From positions 9,418-73,417 of the forward strand of contig CALUMG010000009.1 of assembly GCA_944321705.1 (NCBI GenBank): a stretch of DNA of 64,000 bases, in the 5' to 3' direction. Below are positions 32,725 through 44,503 of this stretch, piece after piece. Made by a program: the position numbers and the translations under genes. This stretch comes from an uncultured Muribaculaceae bacterium. Lineage in GTDB: Bacteria; Bacteroidota; Bacteroidia; Bacteroidales; Muribaculaceae. Each line of letters starts with the position of its first letter. The first letter of the stretch is position 1. Below the pieces are notes generated by a model. The model was not told the origin of the DNA. It ran no database searches and saw only the letters and a list, made by a program, of their open reading frames with translations.

Positions 32725-32834
32725 TGGCCAAAAACAAATTTGACATGCTATAACCTAGCACGGTAATGTTATCGATTTGTGAGAATGCAATGGGAGAAAT
32801 TATGAATGGAACACTATAAGAAGATTGCGTATTG

Positions 32835-32912
32835 TTTAACAATCCCTCCGCCGGAATTACCCGGTTCAGGTTCATAGGGTATAATCTCAGCCACATGGCA
32901 CCCCTTTGTCGT
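32835..32912 (-). promoter_or_regulatory. TPP (THI-box) riboswitch aptamer
   Basis: The minus strand reads GACAAAGGGGUGCCAUGUGGCUGAGAUUAUACCCUAUGAACCUGAACCGGGUAAUUCCGGCGGAGGGAUUGUU. It contains the conserved GGGGUGC, CUGAGA, ACCC, AACCUGA, UAAU and GGAGGGA elements about 110 nt upstream of thiD. Confidence 0.92.
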
Positions 32913-32915
32913 ATG

Positions 32916-38875: not shown

Positions 38876-38920
38876 AAGGCATGCAATCGGGTGATAGCCG
38901 GCTGCATGCCTTGTTTTTAT
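38876..38920 (+). terminator. intrinsic terminator after carB
   Basis: AAGGCATGCA (38876-38885) pairs with TGCATGCCTT (38903-38912), followed by GTTTTT. It lies inside the ORF-track N-terminal extension of the next gene, which supports the ATG at 38935. Confidence 0.6.
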
Positions 38921-38934
38921 TATTTGAAACCAAC

Positions 38935-39651
38935 ATGAGGGAGCATGTGTTCAGATTCAAACAGTTTAGCGTAAAAAATGAGATATCGGCCATGAAAGTT
39001 GGAACCGATGGTGTCTTGGTAGGTGCGTGGTGTGATGTGTCCAACGTTGAGAACGTGCTTGATGTCGGAACAGGAACGGGCTTGATAGCTTTGATGATAG
39101 CACAAAGGAACGAAAAAGCTGCGATAGATGCTTTGGATATCGATGCAACTGCATGTGTTGAAGCCACATATAATGTGAATAATTCTCCATGGAAGAATAG
39201 GATAAAAGTCATTAACGACGATTACGTCAATTATGCGAAGAAATGTGGGAAAAAATATGATTTGATAGTATCCAATCCTCCGTTTTTTAATAATGGCGTG
39301 TTACCTCCTAATCAAGAACGGTCAATGGCTCGTCACTGCATCAATTTGTCTTTTGAAGAATTAATTTCAAATGCAATGCAATTAATGTCGGAGAATGGAA
39401 GATTATGTTTCATATCCCCATCTGATATTGAAACTTCCATAAGTGGTATATTGAGTAATGTGAATCTGCACTTAAATAAGAAAACATTAGTATTTCCGAA
39501 GCCTGGCAGTATGGCAAAACGAATACTGTGGGAAATTGGTGCCCGATCGGTTGGCCTAAAAGAAAGTTCATTAACGATAGAAAAGGATAGCCATCATGAA
39601 TACAGTGCAGACTATGTGAATTTGACGAAGGATTTTTACCTTAAGATGTAA
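38935..39651 (+). CDS. trmN6: tRNA1(Val) (adenine37-N6)-methyltransferase (YfiC/TrmN6 family)
   Basis: Collinear with E. coli YfiC from memory: FRFKQFSVKNEISAMKVGTDGVLVGAW, DVGTGTGLIALMIAQR, the catalytic SNPPFF, and a C-terminal YSADYVNLTKDFYLKM. Confidence 0.8.
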   Translation: MREHVFRFKQFSVKNEISAMKVGTDGVLVGAWCDVSNVENVLDVGTGTGLIALMIAQRNEKAAIDALDIDATACVEATYNVNNSPWKNRIKVINDDYVNYAKKCGKKYDLIVSNPPFFNNGVLPPNQERSMARHCINLSFEELISNAMQLMSENGRLCFISPSDIETSISGILSNVNLHLNKKTLVFPKPGSMAKRILWEIGARSVGLKESSLTIEKDSHHEYSADYVNLTKDFYLKM

Positions 39652-39709: not shown

Positions 39710-40483
39710 TTATTTTATGTTCATTCTCACTTCGTCAAGGAAGTTTTTCATTGCATTGCAATCTTTGTTTTCAACTATTTGTTGCAGTTGGGCCAGTTTT
39801 GCCTGAATGTTCTTTAGCTGACCTGCTGTGTATGGATTGAACAATATTTCTTGCAACAGATAATCGTCTTCCGACATCAATCCTTGAGCAATGGCCATGT
39901 GACGTTTAAAAGTAGTGCCCGGAGCATCTTGGTGTTTCATTACAGCGGCAAAAGCCAATGTGCTGGCAAAAGGTATCGACAGGGAAAATGCAATTGTTTC
40001 ATCATGTTGCTTGAAAGTATATTCAAAGATGTTTAAATGCAACTCATTGTACAGGTCTTTGAAAAAGACTTTGCCTAAATGAGCCCCCTCTGATATTATG
40101 ATCGCGTTCTCGTTTGACAGATTGCTAAGTGACGCGAATGTCGGACCAAACATGGGGTGTGTGCTGACAAATTGATGGTTGCATTTTTCGTAAAATTCAG
40201 GCAATCCCGTTTTTACCGAAGCAATGTCTGACAATATGCAATTCTCAGGCAAGAATGGCAGAACCTCGTTGAATGCACTTATAGTGTATTTTACGGTTAC
40301 GGCATTAATCAGAAGTTCAGGTTTGAATTCTTTTATTTCGTCATAAGTCGTAAATCGTTGTGCGTTAAACGTGAATCTCAGACGTTGAATATCTTTATCG
40401 AATACTGCGACATCATGCTTGAAACTGAGTACATCACAAAAGAATGTACCCATTTTGCCTGCACCTAATATCAGGATTTTCAT
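39710..40483 (-). CDS. tyrA: prephenate dehydrogenase
   Basis: MKILILGAGKMGTFF Rossmann motif, STHPMFGP, and its operon context. Confidence 0.8.
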   Translation of the reverse strand: MKILILGAGKMGTFFCDVLSFKHDVAVFDKDIQRLRFTFNAQRFTTYDEIKEFKPELLINAVTVKYTISAFNEVLPFLPENCILSDIASVKTGLPEFYEKCNHQFVSTHPMFGPTFASLSNLSNENAIIISEGAHLGKVFFKDLYNELHLNIFEYTFKQHDETIAFSLSIPFASTLAFAAVMKHQDAPGTTFKRHMAIAQGLMSEDDYLLQEILFNPYTAGQLKNIQAKLAQLQQIVENKDCNAMKNFLDEVRMNIK

Positions 40484-41547
40484 TTTGCTCTATTGTTTAA
40501 TACTTCTATTTGTTGACGTACCGATTCTTCGTGAATGGCTTCAATGACAGTCCTCATAAAGTTGCCACTCATGCCAAGTTCTTCGGCAAGTTTCACACGA
40601 GTAGTCAATATGTCGTCATATCGATTGGTATGTACGATTTGCATGCTGTGTTCTTTCTTGTATTGACCAATCTCACGAGAAATTCTCATGCGCTTAGCCA
40701 GAATTTCGATAAGTTCATTGTCGATTTGGTCTATCTGCTGCCTTAGCATAGTAAGACTTTCGGTAGTCTGAGTCGTTTCTCTTATTACGAGAGTATTAAG
40801 AATGAAATTAAGTACTTCAGGAGTTATTTGCTGGCTTTTGTCGCTCCAAGCGTTATCAGGGTCGCAATGGGCTTCAATCATTAATCCGTCAAATCCCATG
40901 TCAAGGGCTTGTTGCGACAAAGGTGCTATAAGTTCTCTTTTGCCTCCCATGTGGGAAGGGTCGCAAATTATTTGCAGGTTAGGCATGCGGCGGCGCAGTT
41001 CTATTGGGATGTGCCATTGCGGCATGTTCCTGTACAGGTGTTTCCCATATACTGTAAATCCGCGATGAATGGCTGCGATTCTCCTTATACCCGCATTATA
41101 TATTCTTTGTACGGCACCTATCCATAATTCAAGATCCGGATTGACGGGGTTCTTTATCAATACAGGTATATCTATGCCTGAGAGGCTATCAGCGATTTCT
41201 TGCACGGCAAAAGGGTTGGCCGAAGTTCTTGCACCTATCCAAAGCATGTCGATTCCGGCTTTTAATGCAGCTTCGACATGTGATTTATTGGCGACTTCGG
41301 TGCTGACTAACATGCCTGTTTCTTGTTTTATTTGTTTTAACCATTCAAGGCCGGTTTCTCCAATGCCTTCAAATCCGCCAGGTTTAGTGCGAGGTTTCCA
41401 TATGCCGGCCCTGAATATCGTTATGCCATATTCGGCAAGGGCACGAGCTGTGTTCATTACTTGATTCTCACTTTCGGCACTGCATGGTCCGGCGATTACA
41501 ATCGGTTTGTTTTTCTCGACTTGTGTTATTGGTTGTAAATCTAACAT
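40480..41547 (-). CDS. bifunctional 3-deoxy-7-phosphoheptulonate synthase / chorismate mutase
   Basis: N-terminal type I-beta DAHPS (IAGPCSAES, RAGIWKPRT, ICDPSH) fused to a C-terminal AroQ chorismate mutase (LRQQIDQIDNELIEILAKRMRISREIGQYK). Confidence 0.87.
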   Translation of the reverse strand: MLDLQPITQVEKNKPIVIAGPCSAESENQVMNTARALAEYGITIFRAGIWKPRTKPGGFEGIGETGLEWLKQIKQETGMLVSTEVANKSHVEAALKAGIDMLWIGARTSANPFAVQEIADSLSGIDIPVLIKNPVNPDLELWIGAVQRIYNAGIRRIAAIHRGFTVYGKHLYRNMPQWHIPIELRRRMPNLQIICDPSHMGGKRELIAPLSQQALDMGFDGLMIEAHCDPDNAWSDKSQQITPEVLNFILNTLVIRETTQTTESLTMLRQQIDQIDNELIEILAKRMRISREIGQYKKEHSMQIVHTNRYDDILTTRVKLAEELGMSGNFMRTVIEAIHEESVRQQIEVLNNRAK

Positions 41548-41561
41548 AATGTGTATATTTT

Positions 41562-42746
41562 TTATTTATTTGACATTTCTTTTATACGATTTAATGCTTC
41601 TTGCATTTTTTCTTCAGGGGCACATAGTGAAATCCTAATATATCTGTTTCCATTATTGCCGAAAATGAATCCGGGAGTGACGAACACTCTGGCGCGGTCA
41701 AGAATTTTGTCGGCCAATGTTTCGGAATCTTTCTCTTCGTCGGGAATTCGGCCCCACAGGAATAAGCCTGATTGCCGTTGGTCGAAGTGACAACCTAATG
41801 CTGTCATGATTTGTTCGGCAATGACTCTGCGCTTGCGATATGTATCATTGATTTTATCATACCACGACTTGTCGCATTTCAATGCTTCGGTCGCTGCAAG
41901 CATCATCGGTTTGAATTGCCCGGAATCGATATTGGATTTTACTTTCAATATCCATTGTATGAATTCCGGGTTAGACGCAATCATGGCGATTCGCCAGCCG
42001 GCCATGTTGTGCGATTTGCTGAGAGAGTTCATTTCGATGGCAATATCTTTGGCTCCGTCAATGCTTAGGATGCTAAGAGGATTGTCGTTCAAAATAAAAC
42101 TGTAAGGATTGTCATTTACAATTACTATGTCATGCTTGATCCCGAAATCAATTAATTTTTTGAACAACTCGACTGAAGCACGCTTCCCGGTTGGCATATG
42201 AGGGTAGTTGACCCACATTAATTTTACTTCATCCAAAGGTAATTGCTCAAGAGCTTCAAAATCTGGTTCCCAATTGGAATCTTCAGTTAAATCGTATTTA
42301 TAGATTTTTGCACCGGCAAGTTTGCTTACGGATGTATAAGTAGGGTAGCCCGGATCGGGAATAAGTACCGCATCGCCTGGGTTGATAAAAGCCAGCGTGG
42401 TGTGGAGTATGCCTTCCTTTGATCCTATTAAAGGCTGAATCTCGGTAACCGGGTCAAGAACCACGTTGTAATATCTTTCATACCAGTTGGCGAAAGCTTC
42501 TCTTAATTGAGGTAGCCCGACGTAAGGTTGGTATCCATGTACATCAGCTTTTTGAGCTTCTTGGCACAAAGTGGATATGACATCGGGATGAGGCGGACGG
42601 TCGGGCCCCCCGATTCCTAAAGAAATTATATCAGCTCCATTAGCATTTAATGCAGCTATTTCTCGTAATTTTTTAGAGAAATAATATTCTTTTATTTGCG
42701 TGACACGCTGAGCAGGTTGTATGTTGTTATTGTTCATATTCGGCAT
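41562..42746 (-). CDS. class I/II PLP-dependent aminotransferase (probable aromatic/prephenate aminotransferase)
   Basis: ISLGIGGPD, the NYPHMPTG-type motif, and the PLP-lysine context SLSKSHNMAGWRIA. It overlaps the pheA stop by 20 nt. Confidence 0.8.
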   Translation of the reverse strand: MPNMNNNNIQPAQRVTQIKEYYFSKKLREIAALNANGADIISLGIGGPDRPPHPDVISTLCQEAQKADVHGYQPYVGLPQLREAFANWYERYYNVVLDPVTEIQPLIGSKEGILHTTLAFINPGDAVLIPDPGYPTYTSVSKLAGAKIYKYDLTEDSNWEPDFEALEQLPLDEVKLMWVNYPHMPTGKRASVELFKKLIDFGIKHDIVIVNDNPYSFILNDNPLSILSIDGAKDIAIEMNSLSKSHNMAGWRIAMIASNPEFIQWILKVKSNIDSGQFKPMMLAATEALKCDKSWYDKINDTYRKRRVIAEQIMTALGCHFDQRQSGLFLWGRIPDEEKDSETLADKILDRARVFVTPGFIFGNNGNRYIRISLCAPEEKMQEALNRIKEMSNK

Positions 42747-43563
42747 ATTCTCCTAATATTTTAAATTCGTTGATTAGTGGGCGTACAGCATCGATTGATT
42801 GACGATATCTCACATAATCGGTAAATGTGAGATTTATGTAGAATCTATATTCCCATTCTCTACCTATTATTGGAAGAGATTGTATTTTTGACAGATTAAT
42901 GTCATAGAATGAAAATATGGTCAATATCTTTGACAAGCTACCTTGTGTGTGAGGCAAAGTGAACACAATCGAAGACTTGTTTATTTTTTTGTTTTGCGTT
43001 AAATAAGGAGCTTCTATCGGGTCGGCTAAAATAAGGAACCGAGTTGAATTTCGCTTATTTGTTTGTATGTCATCAGCCAAAATATTTAAACCGTACAGTT
43101 GTGCGGCATATTTCCCACATACGGCTGCATGTCCCATAAGTTTCTTTTTTGAAATTTCAAGTGCGCTGCCTGCCGTATCATTTTTTTCAACGACTTTTAA
43201 GTTTGGGTAACGTTGAAGAAATTGGGCGCATTGCATCAATGCCATAGGATGAGAGTTTACTTCTTTCAAGTCTTCGATGGATTGACCCGGAAGAGCTGCC
43301 AACACATGGGATATATGCATTTTGTATTCTCCTACGATTGTCATGTTACTTTTTCTCAATAATTCATGATTTTGTAACAAACTGCCGGCGATGGTGTTTT
43401 CAATGGCTAGTACACCTATCAGAGACGCATCGGAATTCAGCGTATCGAACATGCTTGAAAATGTTTCGCAAGGAATTGTTTCAATGTCCTCTCCTTTGAA
43501 ATATTCACATGCGGCAGCTTCATGAAAGCATCCCGGTTCACCTTGTATTGTAACTCTTTTCAT
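42727..43563 (-). CDS. pheA: prephenate dehydratase (PDT + ACT)
   Basis: VTIQGEPGCFHEAA, the NSTRFLIL motif, and a C-terminal ACT domain SIVFTLPHTQGSLSKIL. Confidence 0.88.
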   Translation of the reverse strand: MKRVTIQGEPGCFHEAAACEYFKGEDIETIPCETFSSMFDTLNSDASLIGVLAIENTIAGSLLQNHELLRKSNMTIVGEYKMHISHVLAALPGQSIEDLKEVNSHPMALMQCAQFLQRYPNLKVVEKNDTAGSALEISKKKLMGHAAVCGKYAAQLYGLNILADDIQTNKRNSTRFLILADPIEAPYLTQNKKINKSSIVFTLPHTQGSLSKILTIFSFYDINLSKIQSLPIIGREWEYRFYINLTFTDYVRYRQSIDAVRPLINEFKILGEYAEYEQ

Positions 43564-43582
43564 TTGTTTGTTGTTGTATTAT

Positions 43583-43614
43583 AAAAAATCCCGCCATTTT
43601 AAATGGCGGGATTT
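43583..43614 (-). terminator. attenuator terminator immediately upstream of pheA
   Basis: On the minus strand, AAAUCCCGCCAUU (43614-43602) pairs with AAUGGCGGGAUUU (43598-43586). The U-run extends to 43583, 20 nt before the pheA ATG. Confidence 0.75.
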
Positions 43615-43668
43615 CATTCTTTTATATTATTAATCTATAATAATCAATTATACGCATAAAATCTCGCC
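43605..43668 (-). promoter_or_regulatory. candidate antiterminator pairing of the pheA leader
   Basis: GGCGAGAUUU (43668-43659, inside the leader ORF 3' end) is complementary in 9 of 10 positions to AAAUCCCGCC (43614-43605), the 5' arm of the terminator. Confidence 0.55.
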
Positions 43669-43725
43669 TTTATTTTTATTAAAATAAAAGTAAAAGAAAA
43701 AATAATATGCAAAAAATCGACTCAT
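43648..43725 (-). CDS. Phe/Tyr-rich leader peptide (25 aa) of the pheA operon
   Basis: Manual translation gives MSRFFAYYFFFYFYFNKNKGEILCV followed by a stop. Residues 4-15 include 7 Phe and 4 Tyr codons. The ORF is below the track's 60-aa cut-off. Confidence 0.7.
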   Translation of the reverse strand: MSRFFAYYFFFYFYFNKNKGEILCV

Positions 43726-43743
43726 AAATGTTATTTTGTGATG

Positions 43744-43773
43744 CAAAGTTAATTATAAGTTTTAAAAAACAAA
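43744..43773 (-). promoter_or_regulatory. Bacteroides-type promoter (-33 TTTG, -7 TAACTTTG) for the pheA leader
   Basis: TTTG at 43773-43770 and TAACTTTG at 43751-43744 with an 18-nt spacer. The -7 box ends 19 nt before the leader ATG. Confidence 0.5.
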
Positions 43774-43853
43774 TATTTTATCGAAAATTTTTATCAAAAA
43801 GTAGTTTCTTAAAGAATAAATTTTTGAGACAGTAATGCTATCAAGCATGAATT

Positions 43854-44222
43854 TTACATGTCGTGAATTTCGATTGTTGTTGAGTCTTGTTGTTCAATGA
43901 CGTTGACTTGGCATGAAGAGTTGACATTTCCACAACTGACTGTTATTTCAGCCAATCCCGGAACTTTTGAAATTACCACACCCGAGTCGCTCACAGATGC
44001 TACGGCTTCATTGGAAGATGTCCATTTGACTTGAATTAGGTTTGGATCTTCAAAATCGCCTCCTTCGTAAACGATAGAAAATGACATCTGCATTGTGTCA
44101 TTAACAGGCATCGACACTTCTGTAGGGTAAATTTCAATATAAGTAGCCTCGAATGCTTTGTTACAGCATGTGGCAATTGTCAGTGTTATTGATATTATAA
44201 TAATGTATAGGATATTCTTCAT
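43854..44222 (-). CDS. small lipoprotein with bacterial Ig-like (Big_2) domain
   Basis: Lipobox LTIATCC and a Big_2-like VKWTSSNEAVASVSDSGVVISKVPGLAEITVSCG. Start trimmed to MKNILY, which has a TATTTTTG -7 box at 44256-44249. Confidence 0.62.
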   Translation of the reverse strand: MKNILYIIIISITLTIATCCNKAFEATYIEIYPTEVSMPVNDTMQMSFSIVYEGGDFEDPNLIQVKWTSSNEAVASVSDSGVVISKVPGLAEITVSCGNVNSSCQVNVIEQQDSTTIEIHDM

Positions 44223-44503
44223 TGATTGCGGTAATTTTTGATTTTTTGCAAAAATACATAATTCGGTCAACAAAACAGACATAATGTGCGTTTAGATATG
44301 TTATTTTTTCGTTTCGATAATCATGTTTTGCGATTAAATTGAATTATTAAATATAAAATATGTAAAATAACACAATTTTCCGTTTTGGAAAACATTTTGC
44401 AATAGTAATTCGATTAATATATTGATAATTAGGTGTTTAATTTTTAAAATAGAAAACTTTGAAAAAATATGATATGGGATTGTGATTAGAAATATTATTA
44501 TAC

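Follow-up and report, generated by a model that had tools for sequence, protein, structure and literature searches.

The stretch analyzed here (the window, 64,000 nucleotides of contig CALUMG010000009.1 from an uncultured Muribaculaceae bacterium) carries on its minus strand a short leader directly upstream of pheA, the gene for prephenate dehydratase. This leader very probably acts as a ribosome-mediated transcription attenuator of the trp/phe type, which would control a four-gene operon and sense the charging of both tRNA-Phe and tRNA-Tyr. A ribosome-mediated attenuator had been proposed at this locus by a first-pass annotation of the window. The elements of that proposal were found to be conserved and covarying in 62 leaders, whereas the model itself proved incomplete, having missed a conserved pairing between the first and second RNA segments. 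The features of the leader region are as follows.

43773-43770, minus strand: candidate -33 element TTTG of a Bacteroidetes sigma-A promoter (from the window sequence)
43751-43744, minus strand: candidate -7 box TAACTTTG (consensus TAnnTTTG), ending 18 nt 5' of the leader ATG (from the window sequence)
43725..43648, minus strand: leader open reading frame (ORF), 25 codons plus UAA, MSRFFAYYFFFYFYFNKNKGEILCV (translation of the window sequence)
43716-43681, minus strand: regulatory codon run, 7 Phe, 4 Tyr and 1 Ala codons, residues 4-15 (ORF nt 10-45)
43711-43684, minus strand: segment 1, the 5' strand of the protector (anti-antiterminator) helix, GCAUAU plus U-rich Phe/Tyr codons (from the minimum free energy (MFE) structure of the window leader)
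43679-43653, minus strand: segment 2, an A-rich tract plus GGCGAGAUUU (core 43668-43659) plus UAUGCG, with segment 1 or segment 3 as partner
43653-43624, minus strand: spacer with a small AU-rich hairpin, inside the antiterminator loop (from constrained folds)
43614-43602, minus strand: segment 3, the terminator 5' arm AAAUCCCGCCAUU, with segment 2 as alternative partner
43598-43583, minus strand: segment 4, the terminator 3' arm AAUGGCGGGAUUU plus the U6 tract (43588-43583)

The Phe/Tyr codon run and its conservation

Translation of the window recovered the 25-codon minus-strand mini-ORF of the first-pass annotation, in which 11 of 12 consecutive codons specify Phe or Tyr. The ORF begins with ATG, and 84 nt lie between its stop codon and the start of pheA. 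Elsewhere in the window, a six-frame scan found at most 8 Phe/Tyr codons in any 12, and the leader was the sole terminator-before-gene arrangement with an amino-acid-biased mini-ORF.

Relatives were collected by scanning one genome per GTDB species with a PheA alignment, which yielded 80 loci with 61-87% identity; three of these are cut off upstream of pheA, leaving 77 testable. The loci derive mostly from Muribaculaceae, and also from Barnesiella, Sodaliphilus, Parabacteroides, Tannerella, Alistipes, Paludibacter and metagenome-assembled genomes (MAGs) of Bacteroidaceae/Prevotellaceae. The closest PheA proteins are 74-95% identical to that of the window, the named ones coming from Muribaculaceae or unclassified Bacteroidales MAGs, and the best genome match for PheA is Candidatus Avimuribaculum pullicola (87%). 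A mini-ORF rich in Phe/Tyr codons was found 140-190 nt upstream of pheA at 62 of the ~77 testable loci, examples being MTRFYAYYFFFYFYFAKNKNGILYA, MKSFYGTYFYFYFYFSKE, MNRFSFTYYFYYFYFSRVKAGVCM (Parabacteroides) and MTRFFTYFYFYFYFKR. One locus, L062, contains a doubtful mini-ORF with 6/10 Phe/Tyr codons; it was kept out of the alignment, gave no match to the hidden Markov model (HMM) built from that alignment, and is counted neither among the loci with a leader nor among those without one.

The codon runs of these leaders point to translation in a single frame. In 61 leaders, 595 of the 709 codons in the runs encode Phe (297) or Tyr (298), so that a single leader would read both amino acids equally. 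All 595 of these TTN/TAN codons end in a pyrimidine (U or C), and TTA, TTG, TAA and TAG are absent from the runs, despite the tract being very AT-rich, indicative of selection on the frame for Phe and Tyr codons specifically. On these comparative grounds, the codon-phase signature shows that the mini-ORF is read as Phe/Tyr codons, and it indirectly supports the predicted translation of the leader ORF.

The layout of the family is constant: a TAnnTTTG box, an ATG-initiated mini-ORF with the Phe/Tyr run at nt 10-45, the 'GGCGGGAUU' segment at nt ~55-69, a spacer, and a terminator of the form 'AAUCCCGCC...GGCGGGAUUUUUU'. The terminator (AAUCCCGCC-loop-GGCGGGAUUUUUU) ends 15-60 nt ahead of the pheA ATG. 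Alignment of the regions upstream of Bacteroidales pheA thus found both mini-ORF and hairpin to be conserved in 62 leaders, in constant register and with covariation. The alignment-built HMM returned one match per leader-bearing locus, with 104 bits at 43729-43554 for the window, and it also matched L050, a locus outside the training set, with 55 bits. At L050 (L050:4843-4997), the Phe/Tyr run is intact (..INSYFYFFYFYFGKRNGNDI*) and an in-frame ATG is absent; this leader has either a non-canonical start or undergone decay. The genes upstream of the pheA leaders vary in size, identity and orientation (divergent in 17 of 51), indicating that the element belongs to pheA and not to the preceding gene.

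Both promoter motifs named in the first-pass annotation, TTTG and TAACTTTG, were located ahead of the ORF, and the second is strongly conserved. In 59 of 60 leaders, the 80 nt preceding the ATG contain a TAnnTTTG box, as against 3.4% of random 80-nt windows, and the end of the box mostly lies 16-30 nt ahead of the ATG. A -33 TTTG at matching spacing was present in 26 of 60 orthologous leaders, the window counted, and is the weaker part of the predicted promoter. Transcription is predicted to start at ~43737-43735, which would give a 5' untranslated region (UTR) of 10-12 nt.

Could the arrangement be fortuitous? The spacer has a G+C content of 18-28%, so a T-rich ORF might in principle arise by chance, in which case the hairpin would be an ordinary, possibly bidirectional, terminator of the transcript of the upstream Big_2 gene. 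The symmetry of the hairpin, which a simple scan called on the plus strand, and the lack of an obvious separate terminator after the Big_2 gene agree with such an origin. The chance tests argue otherwise: when the 290-nt intergenic region was shuffled 5000 times with dinucleotides preserved, an 11/12 Phe/Tyr run arose once, and the window holds no other. Moreover, the promoter box is situated between the Big_2 gene and the mini-ORF, as it precedes the mini-ORF in nearly all of the relatives, and the arrangement is kept in 62 loci with differing upstream genes and orientations. A chance origin has a negligible probability and is effectively refuted already by the comparative data.

Alternative RNA structures of the leader

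The terminator hairpin and U6 tail claimed ahead of pheA were found in place: the arms 43614-43602 / 43598-43586 form 13 pairs (13-14 bp stem), six of them G-C, around a 3-nt loop, with a free energy of -20.5 kcal/mol, and the U6 run (43588-43583) ends 19 nt ahead of the pheA ATG (43563). The reported complementarity between the 3' end of the mini-ORF and the terminator 5' arm was likewise found, in that GGCGAGAUUU (43668-43659) and AAAUCCCGCC (43614-43605) pair at 9 of 10 positions with a single A.C mismatch. This mismatch, at window position 43664, may mean a lower read-through level in this lineage. An A tract precedes and a U tract follows the terminator (43583-43615), which is nearly symmetric. 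No plus-strand gene converges on it, and it may also stop read-through from the Big_2 gene.

Pair counts on a MAFFT alignment (A2) of the 62 leaders support two mutually exclusive helices. For the antiterminator, in which segment 2 pairs with segment 3 (2:3), 80.3% of cells were paired, compared with 35-50% when the partner was slid; 57 cells showed double changes, and 0 of 500 shuffles attained the observed value. The complementary segment 2/segment 3 hexamers occur in at least seven variants (AACGGG/CCCGTT, GGCGGG/CCCGCC, AGCGGG/CCCGCT, GGCAGG/CCTGCC, GACGGG/CCCGTC, ATCGGG/CCCGAT and AGCAGG/CCTGCT), across which segments 2, 3 and 4 change in concert. Segment 2 would have no reason to track segment 3 unless the two were paired, and the covariation therefore supports the antiterminator. 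For the terminator (3:4), 86-88% of cells were paired, with many compensatory changes. The claim of an antiterminator exclusive with the terminator is borne out by these counts and by the constrained folds described below, in which the 2:3 helix forms.

The pairing absent from the first-pass model is the protector helix 1:2, in which GCAUAU and the U-rich Phe/Tyr codons pair with the A-rich tract, segment 2 and UAUGYG. This helix is the MFE structure in the window. Its sub-helices at A2 columns 36-41/119-124 and 52-62/103-112 were paired in 77% and 84% of cells, respectively, across the 62 sequences.

Folding calculations on the 186-nt leader gave an MFE of -44.2 kcal/mol, compared with -23.4 +/- 3.8 kcal/mol for shuffles (z = -5.4). 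When the transcript extends up to segment 3 in the absence of a ribosome, the 1:2 helix was predicted at -21.0 kcal/mol, with segment 3 unpaired. Masking nt 1-30 up to nt 1-58, as by a stalled ribosome, led to formation of 2:3 (-16.3 kcal/mol for nt 1-43 and 1-50, -13.8 kcal/mol for nt 1-58), and masking nt 61-91, to mimic a ribosome that has reached the stop codon, led to formation of the terminator. Constrained and free folding together thus reproduced the three-structure logic of trp-type attenuators. The spacer between segments 2 and 3 forms a gap-rich, variable part of A2; at columns 169-200 (window ~43640-43616), many leaders hold a loose 'AUGAU..UAACAA..AUAU' block, which may act as a pause signal or belong to the antiterminator loop.

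The position of the stop codon relative to segment 2 is informative. All leaders share a segment 2 core, (A/G)(A/G)CGGGAUU at ORF nt ~55-69, followed by UAUGYG. The stop codons fall into two classes: in ORFs of 16-20 aa they lie at nt 46-61, immediately ahead of segment 2 or at its first nucleotides, and in ORFs of 23-27 aa at nt 70-85, just after it. L001:4835-4885 and L002:4834-4911 illustrate the contrast. A ribosome covers approximately +/-15 nt, and in both classes and all leaders the stop codon is never more than one such footprint from segment 2. Conservation of the C-terminal residues ('..NKNGIL..' or '..VKAGVCM') is therefore attributed to the RNA and not to the peptide. The window has the long form of the ORF and its closest relative, L001 (87% PheA identity), the short form, indicating that the stop codon crosses segment 2 over short evolutionary distances.

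These observations bear on two further explanations. The product of the mini-ORF might be a small aromatic or hydrophobic peptide with a function of its own, such as a membrane micro-protein, the hairpin being the terminator of this small gene and no sensing being involved. Amino-acid-level conservation of the ORF, with its recurrent FYFYF core, and the codon-phase selection indicative of translation would fit a peptide. However, Phe and Tyr are freely interchangeable, the length of the run is variable, and the C-terminal part exists in the two length classes. The nucleotides of segment 2 are kept whether they lie inside or outside the ORF, and they covary with the terminator arm, which peptide function would not need. 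In addition, the element is always directly upstream of pheA. A peptide function is thus considered exceedingly improbable.

Alternatively, a translation-independent RNA switch, responding to a TRAP-like protein, to uncharged tRNA in the manner of a T-box, or to bound Phe/Tyr, would make the ORF incidental. Conserved alternative terminator and antiterminator structures are indeed also seen in riboswitches and T-boxes. However, no Rfam T-box or riboswitch model matched at E <= 10 in 43000-44400, and no structured aptamer is conserved beyond the simple helices. The strict codon phase, with pyrimidines at 595/595 third positions and no in-frame stops in an AT-rich tract, the conserved ATG, and the retention of the stop codon within a footprint of segment 2 all speak for translation, and such a switch is judged very unlikely.

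The proposed mechanism and the operon

In the ribosome-mediated attenuator favored here, four RNA segments would take part: segment 1, GCAUAU plus the Phe/Tyr codons; segment 2, the A-rich tract plus GGCGAGAUUU plus UAUGCG; segment 3, AAAUCCCGCC; and segment 4, GGCGGGAUUU plus the U residues. Transcription would start a few nucleotides 3' of the TAACTTTG box, with immediate translation of the 25-codon leader. When Phe and Tyr are plentiful, the ribosome would reach the stop codon and cover segment 2, or would be released and allow 1:2 to re-form. In either case, segment 3 would be left free to form the 3:4 terminator, and transcription would stop ~20 nt short of pheA, yielding a leader RNA of ~150 nt. 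When Phe or Tyr is scarce, the ribosome would stall within the Phe/Tyr run (nt 10-45) and sequester segment 1; segment 2 (nt 58-67) would then pair with the emerging segment 3 and pre-empt the terminator, and the polymerase would enter the operon. From the sequence data we infer translation of the ORF, the transcription start site, actual termination and read-through, and the response of the operon to Phe and Tyr.

Several points weigh against this mechanism. At equilibrium, the terminator (-20.5 kcal/mol) beats the antiterminator (-16.3 kcal/mol) even with segment 1 masked, so that read-through must be kinetic, with the antiterminator forming first, as in the E. coli trp system. Stalling on the last Phe codons (nt 40-45) would leave part of segment 2 under the ribosome. 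In the window and in L001, L002 and L003, its closest relatives, segment 2 carries GGCGAG where most leaders have GGCGGG. The 1:2 pairs are mostly U:A or U:G, so their covariation is little informative and this helix is more weakly supported than 2:3 and 3:4; the outer helices of the window MFE structure, between the ATG region and the spacer (A2 columns 15-29/137-172), were dropped as window-specific, being paired in 43-53% of cells. Bacteroidota do not rely on Shine-Dalgarno-led initiation, which bears on the rate at which ribosomes would load onto a 10-20 nt leader. Finally, 14 related loci (L021, L026, L034, L037, L040, L042, L045, L048, L049, L051, L055, L058, L061 and L066) have no leader, Phe/Tyr run or HMM match. 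These are mostly Muribaculaceae-type MAGs with 45-58% G+C, and at two of them, L048 and L058, pheA adjoins hisS directly. A Phe-rich run at position 3497 of L058 was considered as a displaced leader and rejected, as it is the T-rich promoter region before hisS.

The operon downstream of the leader contains the following genes.

43563..42727, minus strand: pheA, prephenate dehydratase, the first gene under control (Pfam PF00800, E = 7e-53)
42746..41562, minus strand: class I/II aminotransferase (Pfam PF00155, E = 6e-59), overlapping the 3' end of pheA by 20 nt
41547..40480, minus strand: fusion of 3-deoxy-D-arabino-heptulosonate 7-phosphate (DAHP) synthase and chorismate mutase (Pfam PF00793 and PF01817)
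40483..39710, minus strand: prephenate dehydrogenase, tyrA-like, the last gene of the operon (Pfam PF02153, E = 2.5e-9), overlapping the preceding gene by 4 nt

Little space separates the genes: two junctions overlap, by 20 and 4 nt, and the third leaves a 14-nt gap. The ORF that follows the operon (38881-39651) is convergent. The operon combines the common entry steps of the pathway with enzymes of both the Phe branch and the Tyr branch, and the proposed dual sensing of tRNA-Phe and tRNA-Tyr fits this content. For gut Bacteroidales (Muribaculaceae, Parabacteroides, Alistipes and others), the leader offers a testable mechanism for the control of Phe/Tyr synthesis. It might also be used to probe how transcription and translation are coupled in a phylum that lacks Shine-Dalgarno initiation.

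What relates the leader to known attenuators?

The leader is an uncurated Bacteroidales member of a textbook attenuator class, with a Flavobacterium homologue already in the literature, and it introduces no new principle. No family of Rfam 15 matched it at gathering thresholds. A search of Rfam thus assigned no family membership at the locus, and the first-pass suspicion that no curated family exists holds for Rfam; novelty is lowered, however, by the annotated homologue in Flavobacterium psychrophilum. Below threshold, ncr1175, RsaJ and the Thr, Phe and Trp leaders were returned with 17-33 bits against gathering values of 41-100, namely 20.9 bits (E = 1.3) against 55 for Phe_leader (RF01859), 25.2 against 55 for Thr_leader and 17.5 against 41 for Trp_leader. 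These were rejected as evidence of membership, being driven by the generic terminator (43580-43658). Of all curated Rfam families, only the TPP riboswitch was matched in the window, at 32826-32915 on the minus strand (RF00059, 71.9 bits against a gathering threshold of 54.3). The leaders represent a well-supported family of RNA plus small ORF that Rfam 15 does not contain and gene callers overlook, and thousands of gut genomes would be better annotated with it.

Nothing relevant was found in the literature on BT_3933-3936, locus tags that possibly do not denote the pheA operon. Vitreschak et al., in FEMS Microbiol Lett in 2004, reportedly described attenuators in Bacteroidetes/Chlorobi. For Bacteroides thetaiotaomicron, there is a generic remark that some long 5' UTRs hold leader-peptide-like small ORFs (Ryan et al., 2020), and neither Bacteroidetes nor pheA is mentioned by Naville and Gautheret (2010).

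The closest described counterpart is the leader of the pheA-aspC3 operon of F. psychrophilum (THC0290_N_0195), which was annotated as an attenuation element based on a leader peptide (Guerin et al., 2021, ISME Commun, PMC9723704, SI D9, Table S7). Its transcription start site was mapped to 172 nt before pheA, and its 5' region forms a transcript segment of its own, 171 nt long (PMC9723704). Read-through occurred in specific conditions, and transcription of the pheA operon was highest in minimal nutrient media (PMC9723704). Together with the codon-phase signature, these transcriptome data give indirect support to the predicted translation and conditional read-through of the window leader. According to the authors, the leader is without an Rfam hit and is conserved in Flavobacteriaceae (PMC9723704). 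In an nhmmer search with the Bacteroidales HMM, the 5' region of F. psychrophilum pheA scored 37.8 bits over HMM positions 20-161, compared with -0.1 for the best of 200 shuffles; judged by this match, the two pheA leaders are homologous. Both come from the same phylum, and both operons begin with pheA, an aminotransferase and DAHP synthase. The F. psychrophilum leader likewise has a mini-ORF, MNTNNTFYSNNSFYFYWNIGRDCYMVI, with an FYFY core, and motifs corresponding to segments 2, 3 and 4, GGAAGGGAUUGUUAUAUGG ... AAUCCCGUC ... GGCGGGAUUUUUUU. However, it belongs to the class Flavobacteriia and not Bacteroidia, and its Phe/Tyr run is sparser, interrupted and includes a Trp codon. Its description is confined to a supplement, concerns one species and offers neither an antiterminator model nor a covariation analysis.

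A broader proposal, unlikely on present analysis, is that the Bacteroidia and Flavobacteriia leaders constitute one ancient, phylum-wide Bacteroidota attenuator family, whose abundant, terminated ~150-nt leader RNA or Phe/Tyr-rich peptide might also act in trans on other aromatic amino acid genes. If true, such a family would lend itself to reporting on transcription-translation coupling, given the lack of Shine-Dalgarno-led initiation in Bacteroidota. Action in trans has a precedent in Sinorhizobium, where products of the trp attenuator, the RNA rnTrpL and the peptide peTrpL, act in this way (PMC6614838, PMC7298713).

Within the phylum, the Bacteroid-trp leader (RF01692) is a predicted peptide-leader element upstream of the Trp operon (Weinberg et al., 2010, PMC2864571). 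It resembles the window leader in its phylum and in preceding an aromatic amino acid operon. Unlike the window leader, it has Trp regulatory codons and belongs to another operon; its model gave no match at E <= 10 in 43000-44400, nor in the gathering scan.

Among proteobacterial systems, E. coli pheL is the classical example of a short leader peptide rich in Phe codons ahead of pheA. As in the model for the window leader, the terminator and antiterminator hairpins of pheL-pheA exclude each other, and the position of the ribosome decides between them. No homology in sequence or structure is detectable between them, the 20.9-bit match to RF01859 stemming from the terminator alone. The pheL peptide uses Phe codons only and controls a single gene in Proteobacteria, whereas the Bacteroidales leaders use Phe and Tyr codons equally and that of the window precedes a four-gene operon covering pathway entry and both branches. 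The window leader further differs from pheL in its Bacteroidetes-type promoter and in having no Shine-Dalgarno sequence.

The design itself matches that of E. coli trpL. Both follow a four-segment scheme of 1:2, 2:3 and 3:4 helices, with a terminator more stable than the antiterminator and a kinetic outcome, and in both, a ribosome terminating at the stop codon would mask segment 2. The two differ in that their sequences are unrelated and come from different phyla, and in that the regulatory codons of the window leader themselves make up segment 1, the U-rich Phe/Tyr codons pairing with the A-rich tract. Multivalent leaders are also familiar, as in thr (Thr and Ile) and ilv (Leu, Val and Ile), and provide a parallel to the two-amino-acid sensing proposed here.

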